A DNA stretch of 64,000 bases. It comes from an uncultured Anaerolineales bacterium (GTDB lineage Bacteria; Chloroflexota; Anaerolineae; CG2-30-64-16). The translations under genes and the position numbers were made by a program. The DNA is taken from the NCBI GenBank assembly GCA_964614645.1, contig CAZTMA010000004.1, positions 13,555 to 77,554 of the forward strand, read 5' to 3'. Positions 5,363-53,246 of the stretch are shown here, one piece after another (position 1 is the first letter of the stretch; the number at the start of each line of letters is the position of its first letter). A model generated the notes under the pieces. It was not told the origin of the DNA. It did not search any database and was given only the letters and a program-made list of their open reading frames with translations.

Positions 5363-6591
5363 GTGAGTGAGTTGATTTGCGCCCTCGACGTGGGGACGAC
5401 GAAAGTGTGTGCCCTCATCGGCAAGCTCGATGACAACAATGCGTTGCGGGTCATCGGTGTGGGCCGGGTGCCGGCGCGCGGCCTGCGCCGGGGGGTCGTC
5501 GTCAACACCGTCGAGGCAACCGCCTGCATCGGCCAGGCGATTGACGCAGCCGAAGCCGCAGCCGGCGTGCCGCTCGAAGCGGCCTATGTCGGCATTTCCG
5601 GCGCACATATCGGCGCAATTGGCAGCAAGGGGGTCACAATCCTGGGCCGCAACGGGCGCAAGATTACGCCGGAGGATTGCCAGCGTGCACTGGACCAGGC
5701 CCGCGATATTGCGCTGCCGCACAATCGCGATATCATCAACGCAGTTGCGCGAAGCTACACAGTCGATGATAATCAGGATGTACAAAATCCGATCGGCATG
5801 TTCGCCTACCGGCTGGAAGTGGATGCCAGCCTCATCACTGGCGCGACATCCGCCATCACGAACCTGACGAATTGCGTTACCGAGAACGGCGTCGAGATCG
5901 AGGACCTCGTGCTGCAGCCGCTGGCGTCTGCAGAGGCCGTACTGACTAACGATGAACGCCAGGCCGGCGTGGCCGTGGTGGACATCGGTGGCGGCACCAC
6001 CGACATGGCAATCTTCCTCGAATCGGCAGCCTGGCACACACACGTGCTGGACGTGGGCGGCGACCACTTTGTGCGCGACGTGGCAGCCGGCCTGCGAATG
6101 CCTTATGACAAAGCGGAATCGCTCATCCGGCAGTTCGGTCACGCACTGCCCCACCTCGTTCCACCTGATGCTGAGGGCCCGCCTTCGGTGAAGGCGGTTC
6201 TCAGGTCATCCAGCGGCGTGCGCTGGCTGACATCATCTACTTCCGGGCGGAAGAAGTTCTGGACCTCATCGTAGATGAGATCAAACGCAGCGGCTATGAC
6301 GGGCTATTGCCCGCCGGCGTGGTCCTGACAGGCGGGGTGGCCCAGCTCGACGGCATCGGCGAGATGGCCCACGACCGGCTGACCTGGCCCGTGCGCATCG
6401 GCCGGCCCAACGGAATTGGTGGGGCCGTCGTTGACTTGAGCAGCCCGGAATATGCTACGGCAGTCGGACTGCTCCTCTGGGGGTTGCGCCGCGACAGCCA
6501 GCCGCGCGTGGCAACTCCGCCGGGCGGCGCGCCGCCCTGGCAACGCATTCTCGATTACTTGAAGCGCATTTTGCCGATTCCGACATCTTAA
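5363..6591 (+). CDS. ftsA: cell division protein FtsA, reading frame broken by single-nt frameshift in G3C3 run at ~6175-6181 (ORFs 5363-6274 and 6307-6591 are one gene)
   Basis: Actin-like ATPase motifs (DVGTTKV, VVDIGGGTTD); C-terminal half (LADIIYFRAEEVLDLIVDEIKRSGYDGLLPAGVVLTGG...) continues in +1 frame from 6181 while frame of 5363 hits a stop at 6272; frame 1 has TGA at 6172. Confidence 0.85.
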
Positions 6592-13789: not shown

Positions 13790-13796
13790 CGAGGTT

Positions 13797-13895
13797 TTGC
13801 CACCGAAAACACTGAGCACACGGAGAGCCGTTACAGGTTGCAGGTTACAGGTTGGACGACGTCGGGTCAACAACCTGCAACCTGCAACCTATAAC
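13797..13895. repeat. palindromic element with mirrored tandem CAGGTTG/CAACCTG heptads; left end (TTTGCCACCGAAAACAC) shared with GCCACAGAGG-TIR family
   Basis: gttacaggttgcaggttacaggttg ... caacaacctgcaacctgcaacctataac form ~25-bp stem; loop contains gacgacgtc palindrome. Confidence 0.5.
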
Positions 13896-13937
13896 CCATC
13901 CCCCACCCTTCTTTCGTGTCCAGCAAAGGAGTCCGCC

Positions 13938-17452: not shown

Positions 17453-17566
17453 ACCCGCGGAGTGGGCATCCTCAGATGCCCACGTCGGACCCGTTCCGCG
17501 TCTGAGGACGCTCCACTCCTCACGCAAGAAACGCGGAGTGGGCATCTGAGGATGCCCACTCCGCAC
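17453..17566. repeat. composite palindromic REP-like element: 3 hairpin units of the GGAGT-stem-ATC-CTCA/TGAG-GAT-stem'-ACTCC family
   Basis: cggagtgggcatcCTCAgatgcccac ... gcgtcTGAGgacgc ... gcggagtgggcatcTGAGgatgcccactccgc; first and last units are exact reverse complements. Confidence 0.7.
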
Positions 17567-18287: not shown

Positions 18288-18944
18288 GTGCCAATGCGAC
18301 AAATCTTCGGTCCCAGCGCAAACGTCATTGCTCGGGCTTCGATTATAGGTGGGTTGCTGACGCTGGTCGTCCTCGTGGCAACCGGGTTCGCCTATATCCG
18401 TTCTCCCTATAACACCGAGCAGCGCGTCCACGTGGAGCAGCCGGTGCAGTTCGCGCACCGCACCCACGTCGGCAACGTCGGCCTCGATTGCCGCTACTGC
18501 CACACCACAGTCGAGGACTCCCGCTTTGCAGGCATCCCCCCTATCGCGACCTGCATGAACTGCCATTCGCAGCTGCACGTCAATGCACCCATCCTGGAGC
18601 CGATCCGTGAAGCCTACCGGACGGGCCAGTCGGTGCAGTGGGTACGCGTCCACAACCTGGCCGACTTCGCGTACTTCGACCACAGCGCCCATCTCGCGAA
18701 GGGCGTCGGCTGCACGACCTGTCATGGGCCGGTCGGCGATATGCCCCTCACGTGGCAGGAAAGCACCCTCCTGATGAACTGGTGCCTCGACTGCCACCGC
18801 GCGCCGGAGAAATACCTCCGCCCGCGCGAAGAGGTCTTCAATGCCAACTGGGTGCCGCCGGCCAACCAGCTTGAGGTCGGGCGACAACTCGTCGCCGAAT
18901 ATCAGGTGAACGCCAGGGTCGACTGCTCGACCTGCCATCGGTAG
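18288..18944 (+). CDS. actA: Alternative Complex III pentaheme cytochrome c subunit ActA
   Basis: N-terminal TM then five CxxCH (CRYCH, CMNCH, CTTCH, CLDCH, CSTCH); first gene of act operon. Confidence 0.85.
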   Translation: MPMRQIFGPSANVIARASIIGGLLTLVVLVATGFAYIRSPYNTEQRVHVEQPVQFAHRTHVGNVGLDCRYCHTTVEDSRFAGIPPIATCMNCHSQLHVNAPILEPIREAYRTGQSVQWVRVHNLADFAYFDHSAHLAKGVGCTTCHGPVGDMPLTWQESTLLMNWCLDCHRAPEKYLRPREEVFNANWVPPANQLEVGRQLVAEYQVNARVDCSTCHR

Positions 18945-18967: not shown

Positions 18968-21951
<2,984 letters not shown>

Positions 21952-21955
<4 letters not shown>

Positions 21956-23352
21956 TACATGAGCAGCCTATCCGCAAGGAACTGATCGGGCCGCCGCTGG
22001 ATCGGGCGGACCTCGTGCCGGTCATCGAGCCCGGCCAAACCTTCGAGTCGGTCAACGAGCAGATCGGCTCCGTCGTCCTGCGCCGCGGCTTCCAGCGTGG
22101 CTGGCTGCTGGGGTTAGCCATCGCGTTCCTGCTGCTGATGGTGTTCCTCGGCGCAGTCACCTGGTTGTTCATCCGGGGCGTCGGAATCTGGGGCATCAAC
22201 ATTCCGGTGGGCTGGGGGTTCGCGATCATCAACCTGGTGTGGTGGATCGGCATCGGCCACGCGGGCACGCTCATCTCGGCCATCCTCCTCCTGCTGCGCC
22301 AGCAGTGGCGCACGTCCATCAACCGGTTTGCCGAGGCCATGACGCTGTTTGCGGTCGCGTGCGCGGCGCTGTTCCCGATCCTGCACCTGGGCCGGCCCCA
22401 ATACTTCTACTGGCTGGTGCCCTACCCGAACACGCTGGACTACTGGCCGCAGTTCCGCAGCCCGCTGATGTGGGACTTCTTCGCCATCGCCACTTACGGC
22501 CTGGTCTCGCTGCTGTTCTGGTTCGTCGGCCTCATCCCCGACATGGCGACGCTGCGAGACCGCGCCAAGAGCACCTTTGCCCGCGTGACCTTCGGCATCC
22601 TGTCGATGGGCTGGCGCGGCTCTGCGGTGCATTGGAAGCGCTATCAGGACCTGTACTATCTCCTGGCAGCGCTGGCGACACCGCTGGTCGTGTCCGTCCA
22701 CAGCATCGTGAGCTACGACTTTGCCGTGAGCGTGATTCCCGGCTGGCACTCGACCATCTTCCCGCCGTACTTCGTGGCCGGCGCGATTTACGCCGGGTTT
22801 GCAATGGTGCTGCTCATCTCCATCCCGCTGCGCAAGTACTACCACATGGAGAACTTCATCACCGACCGTCACCTGCGCAACATGGCGATCGTGATGTTAA
22901 CGTCCGGGCTGGTCGTGGCCTACGGTTACGCCATGGAAATCTTCACCGCCTGGTATAGCGGCAACGAGTACGAAGGCTTCATGATGCTCAATCGGGTGAC
23001 GGGCCCCTACGGCTGGGTGTTTGGCCTGATGATGCTGTGCAATGTCGTCATTCCGCAGCTCCTGTGGATCAAACGCATCCGCACAAACTCACTCTGGCTC
23101 TGGGGCATTTCGCTCGTCATCAGCTTTGGCATGTGGTTCGAGCGCTTCGTCATCGTCGTCACCAGCCTGCACCGGGACTTTCTGCCGTCCTCCTGGGCGA
23201 TGTACACGCCGACGGTCTGGGACTACGCCACGTTCATCGGCACGTTGGGGCTGTTTGGCACGCTGATATTCCTGTTCATCCGCTTCCTGCCGTTCATCTC
23301 GATGGCTGAGACGCGCGAGCTGGTGCACCAGACAGGAGGGAAGGTCGAATGA
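21952..23352 (+). CDS. actC: ACIII membrane subunit ActC (NrfD/PsrC-like, ~10 TM)
   Basis: Polytopic NrfD-like protein, 4-nt overlap with actB. Confidence 0.8.
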
Positions 23353-23927
23353 CCGAGCATGTGGCCCACGACATGACGCATGAGGCTGAAGAGGCCGCGG
23401 TCCGGCCCTACGGTCTCGTGGCCGAGTTCGTGGACGAGCACACTATTCTGGATGCCGCACGCCGCGCATATGCCGAGGGTTACCGCCGGCTGGACGCCTA
23501 CACGCCGATACCGGTGGAAGGTCTGTCGGAGGTGGTCGGCTTCCGCAAGAGCCGCATCCCGCTGCTGATGCTGCTGGGCGGCATCGCCGGGCTGGTGGGC
23601 GGGTTCGCGCTGCAGTATTGGGTACACGTCATCAACTATCCGATTAACATCGGCGGTAAGCCGCTGAACAGCGTGCCCATGTGGGTGCCCATCACGTTCG
23701 AGACGACCGTCTTGCTGGCGGCGTTGACGGGTGTGCTGGCGATGATTCTGCTCAACGGCCTGCCCGCGCCCTACCATCCGCTGTTCAACGTGGCCGAGTT
23801 CGCCCGCGCCAGCCAGGATCGCTTCTTCCTGGCGATTGAGGCGACCGACCCGCGCTTCGATATGACCCAGACCCGCCGGTTCCTGGAGAGCCTGGGCCCG
23901 GCCAGCGTGCACGAGGTGTTGCCGTGA
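23349..23927 (+). CDS. actD: ACIII subunit ActD
   Basis: 192-aa protein with two TM helices (IPLLMLLGGIAGLVGGFALQYW; TTVLLAALTGVLAMILL), 4-nt overlap with actC. Confidence 0.7.
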   Translation: MTEHVAHDMTHEAEEAAVRPYGLVAEFVDEHTILDAARRAYAEGYRRLDAYTPIPVEGLSEVVGFRKSRIPLLMLLGGIAGLVGGFALQYWVHVINYPINIGGKPLNSVPMWVPITFETTVLLAALTGVLAMILLNGLPAPYHPLFNVAEFARASQDRFFLAIEATDPRFDMTQTRRFLESLGPASVHEVLP

Positions 23928-23941
23928 AGGTGAAACGCTTT

Positions 23942-24012
23942 GCCACCGAGAACACAGAGAGCGTAGAGTCTTTCTCTCTCAATAACTCAGTGTCCTCTGT
24001 GACCTCTGTGGC
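23942..24012. repeat. MITE-like element with GCCAC(C/A)GAG...CTCTGTGGC terminal inverted repeats, inserted between actD and actE
   Basis: gccaccgagaacacagagagcgtagagtctttctctctcaataactcagtgtcctctgtgacctctgtggc; 25-nt 3' block shared with copy at 47521-47601. Confidence 0.55.
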
Positions 24013-24589
24013 TAGAAAGCTAAGCTTCCTGCTCCTGGGACTCTTCGCGCTGGTGGCGCTGACGGGCTGCCAGGCGATGGCCGACCAGCCGCGCTATGAT
24101 CCGCTGGAGCCGAGCGCGTTCTTCGCGGACGGGCAGTCAGCGCGGCCGCAGGTCGAGGGGTCTGTAGCGCAGGGCCAGTTGCGCACCAGCGACGTGCGCT
24201 ATACCGGCCAGTTCAACGGTGCGCCGGCGACCGAGTTTCCCTTCGAACTGACCGCCGACCTGCTCGAGCGCGGCCGGCAGGAGTATGACATTTACTGCAC
24301 GCCCTGTCACGGCTTCACCGGCGCGGGCGACGGCATGGTCATCCAGCGCGGATTCCCTGCGCCGCAGACCTTCCACCAGGACCGCCTGCGCACGGCGGCG
24401 CCCGGCTACTTCTTCCAGGTCATCACCAACGGGTTTGGCCGGATGCAACCGTACGCCAGCCAGATCCCCGATGTGGATGACCGCTGGGCCATCGCCGCTT
24501 ACGTGCGGGCCCTGCAACTCAGCCAGGCGGCGCCCGCCGAGGCCCTGCCGGCGGAAGACATGCAGCAACTCGGAGGGGCAACCCAATGA
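24008..24589 (+). CDS. actE: ACIII monoheme cytochrome c lipoprotein ActE (alternative GTG start 23924 overlapping actD stop)
   Basis: Signal peptide + lipobox LFALVALTGC; single CTPCHG heme motif; 4-nt overlap with actF. Confidence 0.75.
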   Translation: MARKLSFLLLGLFALVALTGCQAMADQPRYDPLEPSAFFADGQSARPQVEGSVAQGQLRTSDVRYTGQFNGAPATEFPFELTADLLERGRQEYDIYCTPCHGFTGAGDGMVIQRGFPAPQTFHQDRLRTAAPGYFFQVITNGFGRMQPYASQIPDVDDRWAIAAYVRALQLSQAAPAEALPAEDMQQLGGATQ

Positions 24590-25788
24590 TGACACCACAA
24601 GGCATTCTCCGCCGCATGATGCCCGGCGCACTCGTGGTCGGCGCAGTCGGGCTGATCGCGACGCTGGCGGGCATATTCCTGGGCGTCCCCGGCGCATACC
24701 CCGCCTACCTGTTCGCTTTTGTCTTCTGGACCGGCATGGGCATCGGCAGCCTGCTGCTGGCGCTGCTGCAGCATTTGACCCGCACAGGTTGGGGCGCACC
24801 GATCCAGCGGTTCGTGGAGGCGGGCGCGCGCACCCTGCCGCTGATGCTCGTGCTCTTCATCCCCATCATCTTCGGGATGAAGGCGCTGTACTCGTGGGCG
24901 GACCCGGCGCACGTCATTGGTGACCCGGTCCTGGAGCACAAGCAGCCGTATCTCAACGTGCCTTTCTTCATCATCCGTACGGTCATCTACTTCGCGGTGT
25001 GGACGTTCTTCGCCTACCGGACGGGCGCACTCTCGCTCAAACTCGACGAGACGGGCGACGTGAACATCGCGGGCACGCTGCGGGGCATGGGCGCGGGCGG
25101 GCTGCTCGCCGTCACACTGACCGCTTCGTTCGCCGCCTTCGACTGGGTGATGTCGCTGGATCCGCACTGGCTGTCCAGCATCTTTGGCCTGATGGTCACG
25201 ATGGGCATGATGCTGGGCGCGTTTGCGCTGGCCATAGCCCTGGCAACCTGGGCGTCGGACTGGCCGCCGCTCGATGCGGCTGTCTCTCCCCGGCGCTTCA
25301 ATGACCTGGGCAGCCTGATGCTTGCCTTTGTCATGATCTGGGCCTATCTGTCGTTCTCCCAGTACTTGCTCATCTGGGCCGCAAACATCACCGAAGAAGT
25401 GCCGTGGTACCTGGCACGCATGGCGGGCGGCTGGAAATACATCGCCATCGCCATCATCGCGCTGCACTTCGCACTGCCCTTCATCATGTTGATGTTCCGC
25501 GATGTGAAGCGCAACCGGAGGCTGCTGACGGCCATCGGACTCTTCCTGGTGCTCATGCGTGCGGTCGACACCTTCTGGCTGGTCGTCCCGTCGCTGGGCG
25601 CCGCCGGTGTGGGCGCCATCTGGCCCCACCTGACCGCGCTGGTCGGGGTTGGAGGCCTGTGGGCCGCCTTCTTCGCCTGGAACCTGGCGCGGGCGCCGCT
25701 GCTGCCCGTCGGCCTGCCGGCGCCCATGCAGGACCATGCGGCGGTTTCTGAACCTCATAACAACAGGATCGTGCGGCATGAGCGATAA
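24586..25788 (+). CDS. actF: ACIII membrane subunit ActF (NrfD-like)
   Basis: Polytopic membrane protein paralogous to ActC. Confidence 0.8.
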   Translation: MMTPQGILRRMMPGALVVGAVGLIATLAGIFLGVPGAYPAYLFAFVFWTGMGIGSLLLALLQHLTRTGWGAPIQRFVEAGARTLPLMLVLFIPIIFGMKALYSWADPAHVIGDPVLEHKQPYLNVPFFIIRTVIYFAVWTFFAYRTGALSLKLDETGDVNIAGTLRGMGAGGLLAVTLTASFAAFDWVMSLDPHWLSSIFGLMVTMGMMLGAFALAIALATWASDWPPLDAAVSPRRFNDLGSLMLAFVMIWAYLSFSQYLLIWAANITEEVPWYLARMAGGWKYIAIAIIALHFALPFIMLMFRDVKRNRRLLTAIGLFLVLMRAVDTFWLVVPSLGAAGVGAIWPHLTALVGVGGLWAAFFAWNLARAPLLPVGLPAPMQDHAAVSEPHNNRIVRHER

Positions 25789-37017: not shown

Positions 37018-39420
37018 ATGAAGAGAACACTCGTGGTCCTCCTTGCATTGGTGGTCGTCTTGACCACCCTCGCGGCCTGTTCAGGCACCGCTGGTCCCGC
37101 CGGCCCTGCCGGCCCGCAAGGTCCTGCCGGTCCCGCAGGCCCTGCTGGCCCTGCCGGTCCTGCTGGTCCTGCAGGCCCCGCTGGCGCGGAAGGCGCAGCA
37201 GGCGTGACGATGGTCGCCGACACGACGACCCCGCCCGAGACCTGCGCGATCTGCCACAAGGGCGCTGGCGAAAAGCACCAGGCGTCCTACGATGACTTGT
37301 ACCAGGACGCCGTGATTCGGGTCACCGATGTGGCTTATGCCTTCACGGCGGCGCCCGATACAACCACCATCACCTTCAAGATGACGAAGAACGGCGAGCC
37401 ATTCGACCCGAAGCAGGCGGATAATATATCCATCTACTTCGTGCCCTACGCGGACGGCAAATTCCAGTTCGACCCGCCCGCCGAACGCGTGTCGTTGAAG
37501 GGAACGCTGGATTCGGATGGCGCCGGCAACGGGACGAGCACGCTGGTCGAGAAGGAAGCGGGCGCCGAGGATTTCGTTGACTACACCGACATCAGCGGCG
37601 TCAACGGCCTCATCGTCATCTACGGCCGCGACGAAACCGTCCAGCGGCTGCCAGGCACGCGCGTCGACCAGAACCGGTTCCCGTTCGCGGCAGTGCTGGA
37701 GACCGGCGCAGGCGTCGACTACGTTTCGCCGGCCAACAACGATGGCTGCGAACTCTGCCACACGCAGCCCTATCTCAAACACAGCTACATCTACGGCCAG
37801 GTCGACAACGACTCTGCCACCGACTTCTACACCTGCAAGGCCTGCCATCTCGACAATGGCACGGGCGAGCACTTCGAATGGCAGCTCCTGGTGGAGGATC
37901 CGGAGCTGGCCGCGCAGTTCCTGGCTGGCGAGGTGGAGCTGACCGAAGAGCAACATCAGCAGTTCGCGTACAACCCGTCCGTGATGAACGACGTGCATAT
38001 GTCGCATGCCATGGAATTCCCGTATCCGCAGTCCATGGCGAACTGCGTCACCTGCCACGAAGGCAAGCTCGACGCCATCCTGACGGACGCAGCCTTCAAC
38101 ATCACGACCTGCCGCAGCTGCCATCCCATGACGGGCGCGAAGGCTGAGTCCGCTGAGGGTGAGGACCCGGCCTACGACACGACCGCTCTGGCGCTGAAGA
38201 CGCTCCTGACCGGCCCGCATGCCGACATGGACCTGGCGACGACCGACTGCTCGACCTGCCACGGCGAAGGCAAGATGGCGGGCACCTGGAGCCTGGTCCA
38301 TACCGGGTATGACGATATGATCTACACGGCGGACGGCATCCGGTATTCCGAGGCCATCTCCGTCACCATCGAGAGCGCCACGTTGGACGGCGATACGCTC
38401 AGCGTGAAGTTCAGCGCGGCCGAATCGCCGGACATCGAAGGCGTGGACGCAGCCGACATCGTACCCACCGTCCTGGTGGGCCTGTACGGCTGGGACACGA
38501 AGGACTTCATCGTCGGCGCGCACGAGCGTCTGTTCGACGATAACGGCGACGGCGCGATCACCAGCGACGATAGCCGGACCCTGGAGTTCGAAGTCGGCGC
38601 CGAGCATCCTCGCATGAAGACGGTCTCGGCCGAAGGTGGCAGCTGGGAAGTCACTGCCGACTTGGCGCCCTGGAAGGACCTCATCGCGGACGGCACTGTG
38701 AAGCGCGTCGAAGTGGGCGTCCTGCCAGCGCTGGTCGTCGATGAGCAGGAACTTGCCATCGATGCGGCCACCAAGACGTTCGACCTGGCCGCGAACGCGT
38801 TCGATGACGAGTACTTCCAGCCCATCGCGGACATCGAACGCTGCGAGAACTGCCATGCGGCGCTCGCCACGAACTTCCACAGCCCGGATTACGGCGGCAG
38901 TGTCACTGCCTGCCGGATGTGCCATGTCACCAAGTCGGGTGGCTCGCACCTGGAGATGCAGTCGCGGTCGCTGGATTCCTATGCGCACGCGATCCACTCC
39001 GGCCAGGCCTTCGACATCGCTGATGTCGACTTCGGCGACCCGGTGCAGGCCCTGGCGTACGAGCACCACATCGGGTTCCCGTATCCGACACATGCCAACA
39101 CGAACTGCGAGTCCTGCCACTTCCCGGGCACCTACGAAGTGCCTGACCAGGCCAAGTCGCTGCCGGGGCTGCTTTCGGCATCCGACGACAACGAGACGCT
39201 GGACCGGGACATCGAGGACGTGCCGTCCTATGTCACGGGGCCGGCCACTCGGGCCTGCGGCGGCTGCCACCGGGCGGAGCTGATCAAGGAAGACAGCGCA
39301 GGTGGGTTCGCCATGCTGAAAGAGCACATGGACATGGGCGGCTACTTCATTGAAGCTGGGGAGAAGCCTGCAGAGACGCTCCAGTCAGTGTTCGACGAGG
39401 TCATGCCGCTGTTCAAGTAA
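37018..39420 (+). CDS. decaheme c-type cytochrome lipoprotein with N-terminal collagen-like (Gly-Pro-Ala)n tether
   Basis: Signal peptide + lipobox LAACSG; ~13 Gly-X-Y triplets; ten CxxCH motifs (CAICH, CELCH, CKACH, CVTCH, CRSCH, CSTCH, CENCH, CRMCH, CESCH, CGGCH). Confidence 0.85.
37083..37197 (+). repeat. tandem 9-bp (GGNCCNGCN) repeats encoding collagen-like GPAGPAGPQ... segment
   Basis: ggtcccgccggccctgccggcccgcaaggtcctgcc... ~12 degenerate 9-bp units. Confidence 0.7.
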
Positions 39421-46332: not shown

Positions 46333-47415
46333 CTACCGCCAAACCATCGGTAAGAACGCCTGCTCGTTGCAAACTACCGTACGGGCCACCCGCACGGGCG
46401 CAGATTCCTGCCAGACGCCACTGAAACGGTGGTTCGGCCGCGCACCCGGCTCCCCGGCGGGCTGCTCGGCGCGGACGCGCAAGCGGAAGCGATAGGTCCG
46501 CTCTGCGCACGACCCTCCGATAGGCAACACCGCACTGCCTGCCGGCTGATTGCTGAGCCAGGGCTGCCAGGCGGCCGCCGCGCCCGCGGCAACCTCCACC
46601 TCGAAATAGAGCCGGTAGTTGCCGTTCGGAATCGCAGCGATGTCCGGGCCGACGCTCCCCGTCCACGCGACCGATATGCCATCGCGCGACGGCTGCAGCT
46701 GCGCGAATTGTGCAGTGGGCGCGCGCACCAGCTTCACGGCATCCGCAAAGCCATGGTTGCCATGATGATAGAAGGGGCTGTACAGCCGCACGAACACGGT
46801 CATGGCGTCGCTCTCCGCGGTGGCGGCGGTCACAAGATCGACCCAGCGCGCGGTATAGTTGGGCCGCCGGTCCTCCACCCAGCCGACCGTCGCGGCGCGC
46901 GTGTCGGTTCCGCCCGTTGCGTCCAGCCCGGCCAGCTTGGACAGGTAGTAACCGACGGGACAGTCGTTCGGCATCGCGCTGCCGCCGCACAGGCTGACCA
47001 TCCACGCACTGAGGCTGTAGGCCGTGCCCGGCGTCACCGCGACGCGCTGGTAGACCGCCGCATCGAAGGGCGGCGCGAGATCGCTGCCGCCCGGCGGATA
47101 GGCCAGCATGATGAGGCTGTCGTGGCCTTCCAGCTTCTCCCAGCGCATGTCGGCCGGGTCGCAGCTCCCGCCGCGGGCCCAGATTTGCGTGCTGTTGATG
47201 TGAGGCGACCCGTTGAGCACGGCGGCAGTCCACCCGTTCGGCGCCATACCGCTGATGCCCGGCTGCGGATGATAGCCCTGCCCGCATTCGAAGCCGGGGT
47301 TGACCACCACCGGCGCACCTGTGTCGGCCGGTGTAGTGCCCTGTGCGTGTGCGGGCAGCAGAGGGAACAGCGCCAGGCACACGCCCAGCACCAACAGTCT
47401 CGTCTTGAAAAGCAT
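46333..47415 (-). CDS. secreted protein with N-terminal CBM4/9-like carbohydrate-binding beta-sandwich
   Basis: Signal peptide MLFKTRLLVLGVCLALFPLLPAHAQG; NPGFE...W pattern; 360 aa. Confidence 0.5.
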   Translation of the reverse strand: MLFKTRLLVLGVCLALFPLLPAHAQGTTPADTGAPVVVNPGFECGQGYHPQPGISGMAPNGWTAAVLNGSPHINSTQIWARGGSCDPADMRWEKLEGHDSLIMLAYPPGGSDLAPPFDAAVYQRVAVTPGTAYSLSAWMVSLCGGSAMPNDCPVGYYLSKLAGLDATGGTDTRAATVGWVEDRRPNYTARWVDLVTAATAESDAMTVFVRLYSPFYHHGNHGFADAVKLVRAPTAQFAQLQPSRDGISVAWTGSVGPDIAAIPNGNYRLYFEVEVAAGAAAAWQPWLSNQPAGSAVLPIGGSCAERTYRFRLRVRAEQPAGEPGARPNHRFSGVWQESAPVRVARTVVCNEQAFLPMVWR

Positions 47416-47520: not shown

Positions 47521-47601
47521 GCCACAGAGGACACCGAGGACACTGAGATTTGAGCCTCGCAACTCAAAATCACTCTCTATGTCCTCTGTGCCCTCTGTGG
47601 C
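47521..47601. repeat. MITE-like element, GCCACAGAGG...CCTCTGTGGC terminal inverted repeats (second full copy)
   Basis: gccacagaggacaccgaggacactgag...tgtcctctgtgccctctgtggc; shares TGTCCTCTGTG(A/C)CCTCTGTGGCTA with copy at 23942-24012. Confidence 0.55.
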
Positions 47602-47623: not shown

Positions 47624-48907
47624 CTACTTCAGCGTCAGTTCGATCACCGGGACGACCGTGTCCGGCTGCTTGATCGGAATCGTCAGGACCAGTGCAGACT
47701 TGTCCAGCCCGAAGTGCGTCAACTGCCAGTCGGGGATGGCGTTCATCAGCACCTCGCTCCCATCGTGCAGGAAGCGCGCGAACTTCACCTTGTCGCCCAT
47801 GCCCTCAAACAGCAGGTAGCGGAACGGCCACGCATAGATGTGAAGGTAGAGCTTGTCGCCCTTCTGCGTCAGGCGGCAATCGGGCGGCGCGGTGAACTCG
47901 CTCTGCGTGCAGCCGTAGATGGCCTCGCCGTGGAACTTCATCCAGTCGCCGTAGATTTTCAGCGCGTCGAGCGCCCGGCTGTCCCACGTGCCCAGGGGGG
48001 TCGGCCCCACGTTCATCAGCAGGTTGCCGCCCGTGGAAACGGTGTTGACCAGCATGCGCACCAACTGGCCCGCATCCTTCCAGGTGGCTTCGTCGCGGTG
48101 ATAACCCCACGAACCGCTGAAGGTCTGGCAGGCTTCCCACACCACCGGCTCCCCGTTCACCCGCACCCACTCGGCCGGCTGGTACTGCTCAGGTGTGTAG
48201 ATGTCGGCCGAGCCGGGGAGGTCGAGCCGGTCATCCAGCAGAATCTTCGGCTGCAGCTCGCGAATCATCGCGACCAGCTTCTCGCTCTCCCAGTCATCGC
48301 GGCCCTTGCCGGGCATGCCCTTGTACTCGCGGCCCGGGTATGAGAAGTCGCACCACAGGACGTCCACCTGCCCGTAGTTCGTGAGCAGCTCGCGCACCTG
48401 GTTGCGCATGTACTCGGCATACTTGCGCACGTCACGGCTCTTGTTCATTTCGAGCGCGTCGGGATGGTTGCGCAGCGGGTGGATGCCGTCGATGGGGAAC
48501 TCGGGGTGGTGCCAGTCAATCAGCGAGTAGTAGAAGCCGATGCGGAAGCCTTGCTTGCGGAAAGCGTCCACGAACGGGCGCAGGATTTCCTTGCCATACG
48601 GCGTGTTCGTGACCTTATAGTCCGTCTGCTGGCTGTCCCACAGGCAGAAGCCCTCGTGATGCTTCGTCGTCAGCACGACGTAGCGCATCCCCGCGTCCCA
48701 CGCGGTGCGCGCCCACGTCTCAGGGTCGAACATGTGGGGATCGAAATTCTCGAAGTACTTCTCGTAGGCCTCGTTGGGGATCTCCTCGTGATGGCGCACC
48801 CACTCGTGCCGCGCAGGCAGCGCGTACAGGCCCCAGTGGATGAACATCCCGAAGCGATCGTGGACGAACCACGACGTGTCACCGGCGGTCGGTTTGGGGT
48901 GATACAT
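47624..48907 (-). CDS. alpha-L-fucosidase (GH29)
   Basis: GMFIHWGLYA, HHEGFCLWDS, GH29 catalytic region; 427 aa. Confidence 0.85.
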   Translation of the reverse strand: MYHPKPTAGDTSWFVHDRFGMFIHWGLYALPARHEWVRHHEEIPNEAYEKYFENFDPHMFDPETWARTAWDAGMRYVVLTTKHHEGFCLWDSQQTDYKVTNTPYGKEILRPFVDAFRKQGFRIGFYYSLIDWHHPEFPIDGIHPLRNHPDALEMNKSRDVRKYAEYMRNQVRELLTNYGQVDVLWCDFSYPGREYKGMPGKGRDDWESEKLVAMIRELQPKILLDDRLDLPGSADIYTPEQYQPAEWVRVNGEPVVWEACQTFSGSWGYHRDEATWKDAGQLVRMLVNTVSTGGNLLMNVGPTPLGTWDSRALDALKIYGDWMKFHGEAIYGCTQSEFTAPPDCRLTQKGDKLYLHIYAWPFRYLLFEGMGDKVKFARFLHDGSEVLMNAIPDWQLTHFGLDKSALVLTIPIKQPDTVVPVIELTLK

Positions 48908-53170: not shown

Positions 53171-53246
53171 GGAGTTCCGCATCCTCAGATGCGGAACGGC
53201 CCGCCTGAGAGGCAGCACCGTTTGCATCTGAGGATGCAAACTCCTC
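53171..53246. repeat. composite palindromic REP-like element: two mirror hairpin units (CTCA and TGAG loops) flanked by GGAGT...ACTCC
   Basis: ggagttccgcatcCTCAgatgcggaac ... gtttgcatcTGAGgatgcaaactcc; preceded at 53121 by GGAGTCGAGGCT motif. Confidence 0.7.

Follow-up and report, generated by a model that had tools for sequence, protein, structure and literature searches.

Analysis of the window, i.e. the entire 64,000-nucleotide stretch of DNA considered here, confirmed the presence of a palindromic repeat at the junction between the actD and actE genes of an ACIII operon. The repeat belongs to a family of hairpins with CACAGAG-containing arms, and this copy is probably read through as part of the actE leader from a GTG start at position 23924, with the mature ActE protein being left unchanged. 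The gene order revealed by Pfam agrees with the sequence-only reading in placing the repeat inside the operon: an ActA-like multihaem cytochrome (18288-18944) is followed by ActB (18968-21955), ActC (NrfD; 21952-23352), ActD (PF11821, E 2.4e-64; 192 aa, plus strand, 23349-23927, TGA stop at 23925-23927), a cytochrome c (ActE) and an ActF-like ORF (24586-25788), and then by SCO1 and COX2. The actE ORF (23924-24589, plus strand) encodes a 221 aa monohaem cytochrome c that matches Cytochrome_CBB3/Cytochrom_C in Pfam and, as judged by translation and homologues, is a lipoprotein precursor. The 4-nt overlap earlier ascribed to every other pair of act genes exists for actB/actC, actC/actD and actE/actF, but not for actA and actB, which are separated by a 23-nt gap, nor for the gene after actF, which overlaps actF by 11 nt. 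Likewise, actD and actE are not kept apart by the element if translation of actE starts at GTG 23924, the frame then being continuous.

Because the start codon of actE overlaps the stop codon of actD (GTGA), an insertion just after the actD stop lands in actE, and the copy lying 15 nt past that stop falls inside actE codons 7-30. At this position, presumably, only an in-frame and stop-free copy could have survived. Translation would still begin at GTG 23924, coupled to termination of actD and making use of a conserved GAGGTG sequence. Read-through of the repeat by the ribosome would add 24 residues (ATENTES...SVSSVTSVA), as part of a 28-codon extension of the n-region of the ActE lipoprotein signal peptide. 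The leader would subsequently be cut off at the lipobox, between LTG and C49.

The actD/actE copy (copy 1) is an imperfect palindrome of about 73 bases (23942-24012), the arms of which are built of 9-nt units, CACAGAG+NN. The left arm, GCCACCGAGAACACAGAGAGC (23942-23962, plus strand), encodes A7-S13 (ATENTES) and can be read in units as GCCACCGAG AA CACAGAG AGC. It is followed by an unconserved centre, or loop region (23963-23985, plus strand), and by the right arm, CTCAGTGTCCTCTGTGACCTCTGTGGC (23986-24012, plus strand), which encodes SVSSVTSVA, reads in units as CTCAGTG T CCTCTGTG A CCTCTGTGGC and contains in-frame GTG codons at 23990, 23999 and 24008. The terminal inverted repeats (TIRs) ascribed to this copy are thus present as inverted arms, but the left arm is degenerate, with GCCACCGAG rather than GCCACAGAGG. 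A second full copy at 47521-47601 (copy 2; GCCACAGAGGACACCGAGGACACTGAG ... CTCTATGTCCTCTGTGCCCTCTGTGGC, no strand assigned) was found as had been claimed and is the better preserved of the two. It is situated 20 nt downstream of the stop codon of an alpha-L-fucosidase gene (47624-48907, minus strand). The neighbour to its left was taken to be the minus-strand ORF at 46333-47415, which begins with a signal peptide and was chosen on the basis of a GC3 of 0.83 versus 0.66, hence copy 2 lies between co-directional genes as opposed to the convergent genes originally described. The related left end reported near 13797 proved to be a left arm alone (GCCACCGAA AA CACTGAG CA CACGGAG AG; 13799-13827, plus strand) that begins 10 nt downstream of the stop codon of a PA14/LysM gene.

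A scan of the window for two consecutive units returned eight hits, all of them at these three loci, versus 0.16 expected by chance, and the block pattern of the sequence-only reading gave six matches versus 0.17 expected. Copy 2 has a predicted RNA folding energy of -47.5/-54.6 kcal/mol (z -7.8/-8.5), and the more degenerate copy 1 one of -28.9 kcal/mol (z -3.2). The centres of the two full copies are unrelated in sequence. The lone left arm directly abuts, and is effectively fused to, a hairpin of another unit type, with arms of tandem CAGGTTR heptamers (13830-13895, plus strand, from fold and sequence). The region 13790-13900 folds at -45.5 kcal/mol (z -5.2), with a long stem that spans the CAGGTTR hairpin. 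Compound short-unit hairpins next to CACAGAG arms were observed in other phyla also, one of which (locus L118) has an ACAGGTT unit too.

The most likely start codon of actE is the GTG at 23924-23926 (plus strand). A Shine-Dalgarno-like GAGGTG (23913-23918, plus strand) is located within actD, 5 nt upstream of this codon; it is invariant in all relatives aligned, including the element-free L005, and its predicted duplex with the anti-Shine-Dalgarno sequence (-9.8 kcal/mol) is similar to those of the actB, actF and COX2 sites. The 4-nt overlap between actD and actE, as GTGA or ATGA, is present in every relative aligned. The distance from GTG 23924 to GTG 24008 is exactly 84 nt, over which only frame 0 is open, both alternative frames being closed, and the frame from 23924 runs for 28 codons through the element and into ARKLSFLLLGLFALVALTGC, a lipoprotein signal peptide with its Cys at residue 49. 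Translation and alignment place the native signal peptide at 24011-24070 (plus strand), comprising an n-region (ARK), a hydrophobic core and an LTGC lipobox (L46-T47-G48-C49, Cys codon 24068-24070), which aligns with the MKRRL...AGC segment of element-free relatives.

A different arrangement, in which the element constitutes an untranslated intercistronic spacer and ActE is initiated within the right arm, at GTG 24008 or perhaps 23999 or 23990, after termination of actD, is considered improbable. A start at 24008 would give a textbook 21-residue lipoprotein signal peptide, MARKLSFLLLGLFALVALTGC, with Cys21 close to the position in the ActE of Rhodothermus marinus, which has been reported to have a lipobox, with a lipid proposed on Cys24 (PMC5928083). 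From GTG 23924, by comparison, the lipobox Cys is residue 49. Additionally, the right arm offers no fewer than three in-frame GTG codons, and JGI called the protein of a close relative (P0123) from GTG 24008; indeed, the JGI gene calls for two close relatives start at an internal GTG or a later ATG, which counts against position 23924. It is also conceivable that initiation at 23924 is hindered by a hairpin of -29 kcal/mol that begins only 18 nt further on. However, no Shine-Dalgarno-like sequence was detected ahead of any of the internal GTG codons (-0.3 to -3.5 kcal/mol), all three of which are paired inside the predicted copy 1 stem, and L001 has GTA at the position equivalent to GTG 24008. 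Moreover, the upstream frame would be unconstrained if the element were a spacer, yet all junction states encountered combine an open frame 0 with an insert length divisible by three, and no indels have accrued over about 19% divergence. There is therefore a strong likelihood, judging from these sequence features, that ActE starts at GTG 23924. Between the two possibilities raised by the sequence-only reading, i.e. that the element supplies the start codon at 24008 or that ActE carries a 28-aa repeat-encoded leader from 23924, the latter is favoured. Gene callers give near-identical actE products of 170, 193, 195, 200 and 221 aa (P0121-P0134, the cluster of P0001), because they differ in their handling of the 5'-terminal repeat.

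Homologues of ActE differ in the presence of the insert. Protein P0132 is the same as the window protein except for V/M at residue 1, and the 28-residue insert is present also in P0001, P0131 and P0134 (95% identity) and in P0002 from Chloroflexi bacterium ADurb.Bin325 (80% identity). Relatives at 66% identity are without the insert, beginning MKRRL... and proceeding straight into the hydrophobic core. DNA alignments of the actD/actE region revealed four junction states. The first, the CACAGAG-type 84-nt element, is found in the window, L004, L250, L252 and the ADurb.Bin325 lineage (L001-L003). In the second and third states the junction is occupied by a hairpin with CAGATTG-type heptamers, short in L246/L247 (GCA_040772005, GCA_040770385) and long in L248/L249, whereas the fourth, represented by L005, has no element. 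The CACAGAG state occurs in genomes with ActE 80-95% identical to that of the window, both heptamer states occur within the window's own cluster of at least 90% ActE identity, and the element is absent at 66% identity.

In all four states frame 0 is open from the overlapping GTG or ATG to the lipobox, while the other two frames contain stops, and this pattern points to initiation at 23924 with the repeat translated, most likely into the cleaved n-region of ActE. The chance of frame 0 being open in every state, if phase and length were random, is by our own estimate roughly 1 in 80 to 250, assuming that one frame in three is open, that the length must be a multiple of three and that two or three independent events took place; the states are not fully independent, since L246 resembles a deletion derivative of L249.

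The CACAGAG element at actD/actE is old, and one sub-lineage seems to have exchanged it for another hairpin, because the ADurb.Bin325 lineage, at 80% identity, has it, while the heptamer states sit in the cluster of at least 90% identity. A spacer conserved in related genomes had been put forward as grounds for doubting an insertion. The comparison cuts both ways, in that the spacer is kept at 80-95% ActE identity, but different hairpins or none at all are present elsewhere. Because of these other relatives, the spacer is taken to be an old insertion as opposed to native operon sequence.

Exchanges of hairpins within the same slot were observed at more than one locus. CAGATTG-heptamer hairpins occupy the actD/actE slot in GCA_040772005 and in JGI sample 3300076802, and in GCA_022707645 the slots that contain CACAGAG elements in the window, one past the fucosidase gene and one ahead of uxuA, are occupied by a TATCCGAAAATTGCTCTGGCCGGTCTC-type hairpin (the loci concerned are L246:10010-10062, L249:1782-1925, L002:420-510, L334:3826-3912 and L333:3785-3880). 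At the copy 2 site, two close genomes lose synteny immediately after the fucosidase stop codon, and a metagenome scan for an empty site returned only relatives of at most 74% identity.

Comparison of the 28 insert codons of the window with those of ADurb.Bin325 revealed 5, 7 and 4 differences at codon positions 1, 2 and 3, respectively, corresponding to 11 non-synonymous and two synonymous codons, versus 17, 15 and 49 differences in mature ActE. Since the codon-position bias is absent from the insert, the peptide that it encodes is evidently not under selection, which fits with its location in a cleaved n-region. The nucleotide sequence of the arms presents a different picture. Among four close lineages, only 3 of 48 arm sites are variable, compared to 30 of 79 fourfold sites of actE (Fisher p=5e-5). 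The right arm alone is invariant (0/27, p=3.5e-5 versus the same fourfold sites), the left arm varies at 3 of 21 sites, and the centre, with 5 of 23 sites variable, shows no difference from the fourfold sites. Something therefore constrains the arm sequence at actE, which could be either a function or ectopic conversion from other copies; the latter could by itself explain the conservation, and to that extent weakens the case for functional arms.

These observations bear upon the idea that the hairpin has been kept as a regulator of the operon, either as an mRNA stem between actABCD and actE-cox that sets segmental stability or a processing site, or by throttling ActE translation and so making it dependent on actD-coupled ribosomes, and that it is translated only incidentally. 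This proposal is tentative. Conservation far in excess of the synonymous rate is seen in the arms but in neither the centre nor the peptide, three left-arm changes are A-to-G and retain G-U pairing on the mRNA strand, and some hairpin fills the actD/actE slot in every close relative. Furthermore, the family is located at 3' gene ends, in the manner of mRNA-stabilising REP sequences and the Correia elements that are cleaved by RNase III (PMC3733652, PMC2229807). Against this, compensatory double changes were observed at none of 28 pairs, the ADurb.Bin325 copy has lost pairs, and L005 has the same operon without any hairpin. Neither does the hairpin resemble an intrinsic terminator, there being no T-run after the stem and no terminator-like site at either copy. 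An effect of the element on coupling or mRNA processing, as the sequence-only reading had mooted, is possible, the one line of evidence for it being an arm conservation well in excess of neutral expectation. Within the account preferred here, of a repeat read through from GTG 23924, the same conservation suggests that the hairpin probably keeps at actE whatever role the family has at 3' gene ends, which would most likely be that of an RNA stem modulating mRNA decay or processing, or the translation of ActE.

The distribution of the family was examined by scanning one genome per species for CCTCTGTGNCCTCTGTGGC, which returned at least 120 loci (L006-L125). The matches listed derive from Acidobacteriota, Planctomycetota, Chloroflexota, Beta-, Gamma- and Deltaproteobacteria, Myxococcota, Verrucomicrobiota, Bacteroidota, Bacillota, Nitrospirota, Cyanobacteria, Armatimonadota and others; overall the CACAGAG-arm family is present in more than 10 bacterial phyla, Gemmatimonadota included. 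Among the matches listed, some carriers are long-read chromosomes and others are isolates, namely Trichlorobacter thiogenes and Sorangium sp. So ce388. When plasmids were searched by BLAST, the arms were located at 18 and 14 places on two megaplasmids of Gemmatirosa kalamazoonensis, and additionally in Bacteroides ovatus and B. finegoldii. Two metagenome-assembled genomes (MAGs) labelled as archaeal (L107 and L112, binning unchecked) also hold CACAGAG-armed hairpins, and a variant end of the family, ACCACAGAGG...CCTCTGTGGT, was noted, with L335 and L336 also in the carrier set. Transport of the family by phages is not supported: the 128 arm matches in 120 viral stretches (L126-L245) are mostly coding-sequence coincidences in two redundant contig groups, with the 19-mer in apparent coding sequence, and only about a dozen are true hairpins (e.g. 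L133, L161, L202 and L233).

Among the matches listed, about two thirds of the arm hits belong to complete hairpins, which measure 52-172 nt. The arms comprise two or three 9-nt units, most often three plus three, with junction dinucleotides GA more frequent than GT or GG. These junction positions are complementary between arms in only about half of cases, which indicates that the arms are conserved as sequence and not merely as a stem. The elements are typically preceded by TTA or TTT and followed by TAA or AAA, flanks that lengthen the stem, and in some genomes (L063; L062/L083) the copies share a centre. With regard to location, 78 of the 109 sides measured among the matches listed fall 0-59 nt after the stop codon of a long ORF (150 codons or more); such ORF ends are present on both sides of 38 of 79 elements, and on neither side of 8 of 79. 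The copies in the window begin 15, 20 and 10 nt past stop codons (copy 1, copy 2 and the lone arm, respectively). The notion that the arms might provide C-terminal tails, with LCVLCG* ending at the frequent TAA, was discarded as the frames upstream of solo arms are short. In a Pirellulaceae MAG (L018:152-928), five CACAGAG hairpins are arranged head to tail, approximately 150-170 nt apart, in a geneless cluster reminiscent of a BIME.

Insertion in frame is not confined to ActE. Copies lie in frame inside PrmA of a Chloracidobacterium sp. (L016; insert at about 5930-6035, plus strand), between the SAM motif and ILACDTD, and inside the proline racemase of an Acidobacteriota MAG (L087), with Pfam matches flanking the insert on both sides in each case. 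A further copy was observed in frame inside a polytopic membrane ORF (L073). The ActE, PrmA, proline racemase and L073 copies share one frame, ATExTE...SVxSVA, and it seems likely that selection for a harmless peptide filters the frame of insertion, because translation in the other frames would produce repeats of HRG or PQR, and of LCV or PLC.

The element had originally been described as MITE-like. This description is only partly apt. In its favour, the TIRs are of about 27 nt, the elements are small (52-172 nt, and hence below 300 bp), are devoid of coding capacity and occur in several copies per genome, while the shared centres in L063 and L062/L083 are reminiscent of MITE subfamilies. In a classical MITE, however—a deletion derivative of an IS, moved by cut-and-paste via its TIRs and in this instance supplying a promoter or start codon—the remaining features would be hard to accommodate, and such an origin is considered highly improbable. 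No target-site duplication is apparent in the flanks of 84 elements, in which direct identity over 1 to 5 nt amounts to 16/9/2/0/1 compared to inverted identity of 34/18/12/5/5, and no direct repeat flanks copy 1 or copy 2 of the window. Arm pairs spaced 0.4-7 kb apart in about 240 loci enclose no transposase; the ORFs between them are ordinary genes (a MoxR-like ATPase, PQQ dehydrogenase, acyl-CoA dehydrogenase and HEPN-like protein, named by sequence reading alone). Nor do the unrelated centres of the two full window copies, or arms consisting of tandem 9-mers common to several phyla, fit with a classical MITE, and such arms are unlike the ends of any IS family known to us. A weak sigma-70-like match to which the element's left end gives rise (23940-23969; TTGCCA, 18 nt, TAGAGT) could be construed as a promoter supplied by such a MITE, but the -10-like TAGAGT is replaced by CAGAGT or CCGCGT in relatives and the match is probably due to chance.

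Bacterial MITEs such as Correia/NEMIS, ERIC, YPAL and Nezha nonetheless resemble the CACAGAG elements in having TIRs, lengths of 50-170 bp and long RNA stem-loops, and some of them fuse in frame to ORFs, YPAL being part of the signal peptide in YPO1552 (PMC2229807). The CACAGAG family differs in that neither TA nor other duplications accompany it, no partner IS was found in the loci examined and the centre is variable between the copies of this genome. REP, BIME and REPIN sequences are similarly extragenic hairpins that are mostly located downstream of coding regions, form tandem clusters, are sometimes intragenic, lack target-site duplications and are long-lived at orthologous sites (PMC3733652). 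The placement of the CACAGAG family, downstream of genes and between co-directional or convergent ORFs, is that of a REP. Conversely, REP/REPINs are defined by a palindrome of 20-40 bp with a GTAG or CGTC tag at one of its ends (PMC3733652), and this tag is absent from the CACAGAG elements, the ends of which are (T)TAGCCACAGAGG or TTTGCCACAGAGG. The arms of the latter, moreover, consist of direct 9-mers in succession and are not themselves small palindromes. REPs are mobilised by RAYTs, and no RAYT gene was seen in the 64-kb window, the ORFs of which were partly screened, or in loci of 8-20 kb. REPs are also usually species-specific, whereas CACAGAG arms are common to many phyla.

The Rickettsia palindromic elements (RPEs) provide a further point of comparison, being short palindromes that are intergenic or inserted in frame in conserved genes, in which they undergo translation and are tolerated (PMC2229807). 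Insertion of this type was found in the ActE leader, PrmA and proline racemase. RPEs, however, are restricted to Rickettsia and conserved over the whole of their 105-146 bp, whereas the CACAGAG family conserves only its arms, and membership of the RPEs is excluded by distribution, the hosts being Chloroflexota and more than 10 other phyla. We are aware of no sequence similarity between the two. Cyanobacterial STRR and TAACTGA repeats are likewise tiny tandem intergenic units present in distant phyla with no evident mechanism of transfer, the TAACTGA heptamer occurring in Beggiatoaceae, Cyanobacteria and Bacteroidetes (PMC4679880), but they form direct arrays that are mostly upstream of start codons, as opposed to complementary hairpin arms past stop codons. 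For a short unit that several phyla have in common in the absence of a known vehicle, the TAACTGA repeat offers the closest precedent. Rfam scans of the window and of six loci that contain canonical copies yielded nothing at the gathering score, and an E-value scan of copy 2 returned only sub-threshold, generic miRNA-hairpin models. Integron attC sites, in which R''/R' boxes (RYYYAAC ... GTTRRRY) bound an imperfect palindrome within cassette arrays, were discounted on the grounds that the TTAGCC...GGCTAA ends do not fit GTTRRRY and that the window copies are dispersed singles. On balance, the CACAGAG element resembles RPE and REP sequences in its behaviour rather than a classical MITE. The 9-mer arms, the spread across phyla and the slot-wise replacement of hairpins are, as far as could be established, not features of the families compared.

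A repeat that is exonised in a signal peptide is a known kind of event; it is the repeat family that is unusual, and a limited literature search returned no published description of it. It is possible, if somewhat doubtful, that CACAGAG hairpins constitute an undescribed, pan-bacterial class of stop-codon-proximal elements, the 9-nt units of which are bound by a widely shared factor, with the ActE copy being a functional cis-element and not a passenger. If true, this would explain the presence of identical arms in phyla ranging from Chloroflexota to Acidobacteriota, Planctomycetota, Proteobacteria, Bacteroidota and Gemmatimonadota, the persistence of purifying selection on the arms at orthologous sites even where they are translated, and the substitution of one hairpin family for another within a given intergenic slot. 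If the family is real, its mode of spread and binding partner could feasibly be tested, given that cultured carriers are available in Gemmatirosa kalamazoonensis, Bacteroides ovatus, Trichlorobacter thiogenes and Sorangium. The actD/actE junction itself presents a clean case of a palindromic repeat within a cleavable signal peptide, for which relatives with the same, a different or no element serve as natural controls. For the purposes of annotation, the likely start of ActE in this Chloroflexota lineage is 23924, at a junction where gene callers disagree.

Two further types of repeat were observed in the window. The first is a second repeat family, comprising six small hairpins that occur in pairs (2337-2350 and 2373-2386; 17466-17479 and 17542-17555; 53179-53192 and 53224-53237) and share a conserved loop, (C)ATCCTCAGAT(G). 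Their stems differ yet remain complementary (TCCGC/GCGGA, CTCGT/ACGAG, TGGGC/GCCCA and TTTGC/GCAAA), GGAG precedes most of them, and they have the appearance of a structured motif with covarying stems. The second, at 37088-37204, is a repeat with 9-nt periodicity encoding Gly-Pro-Ala/Gly-X-Y triplets, suggestive of a collagen-like repeat gene segment.
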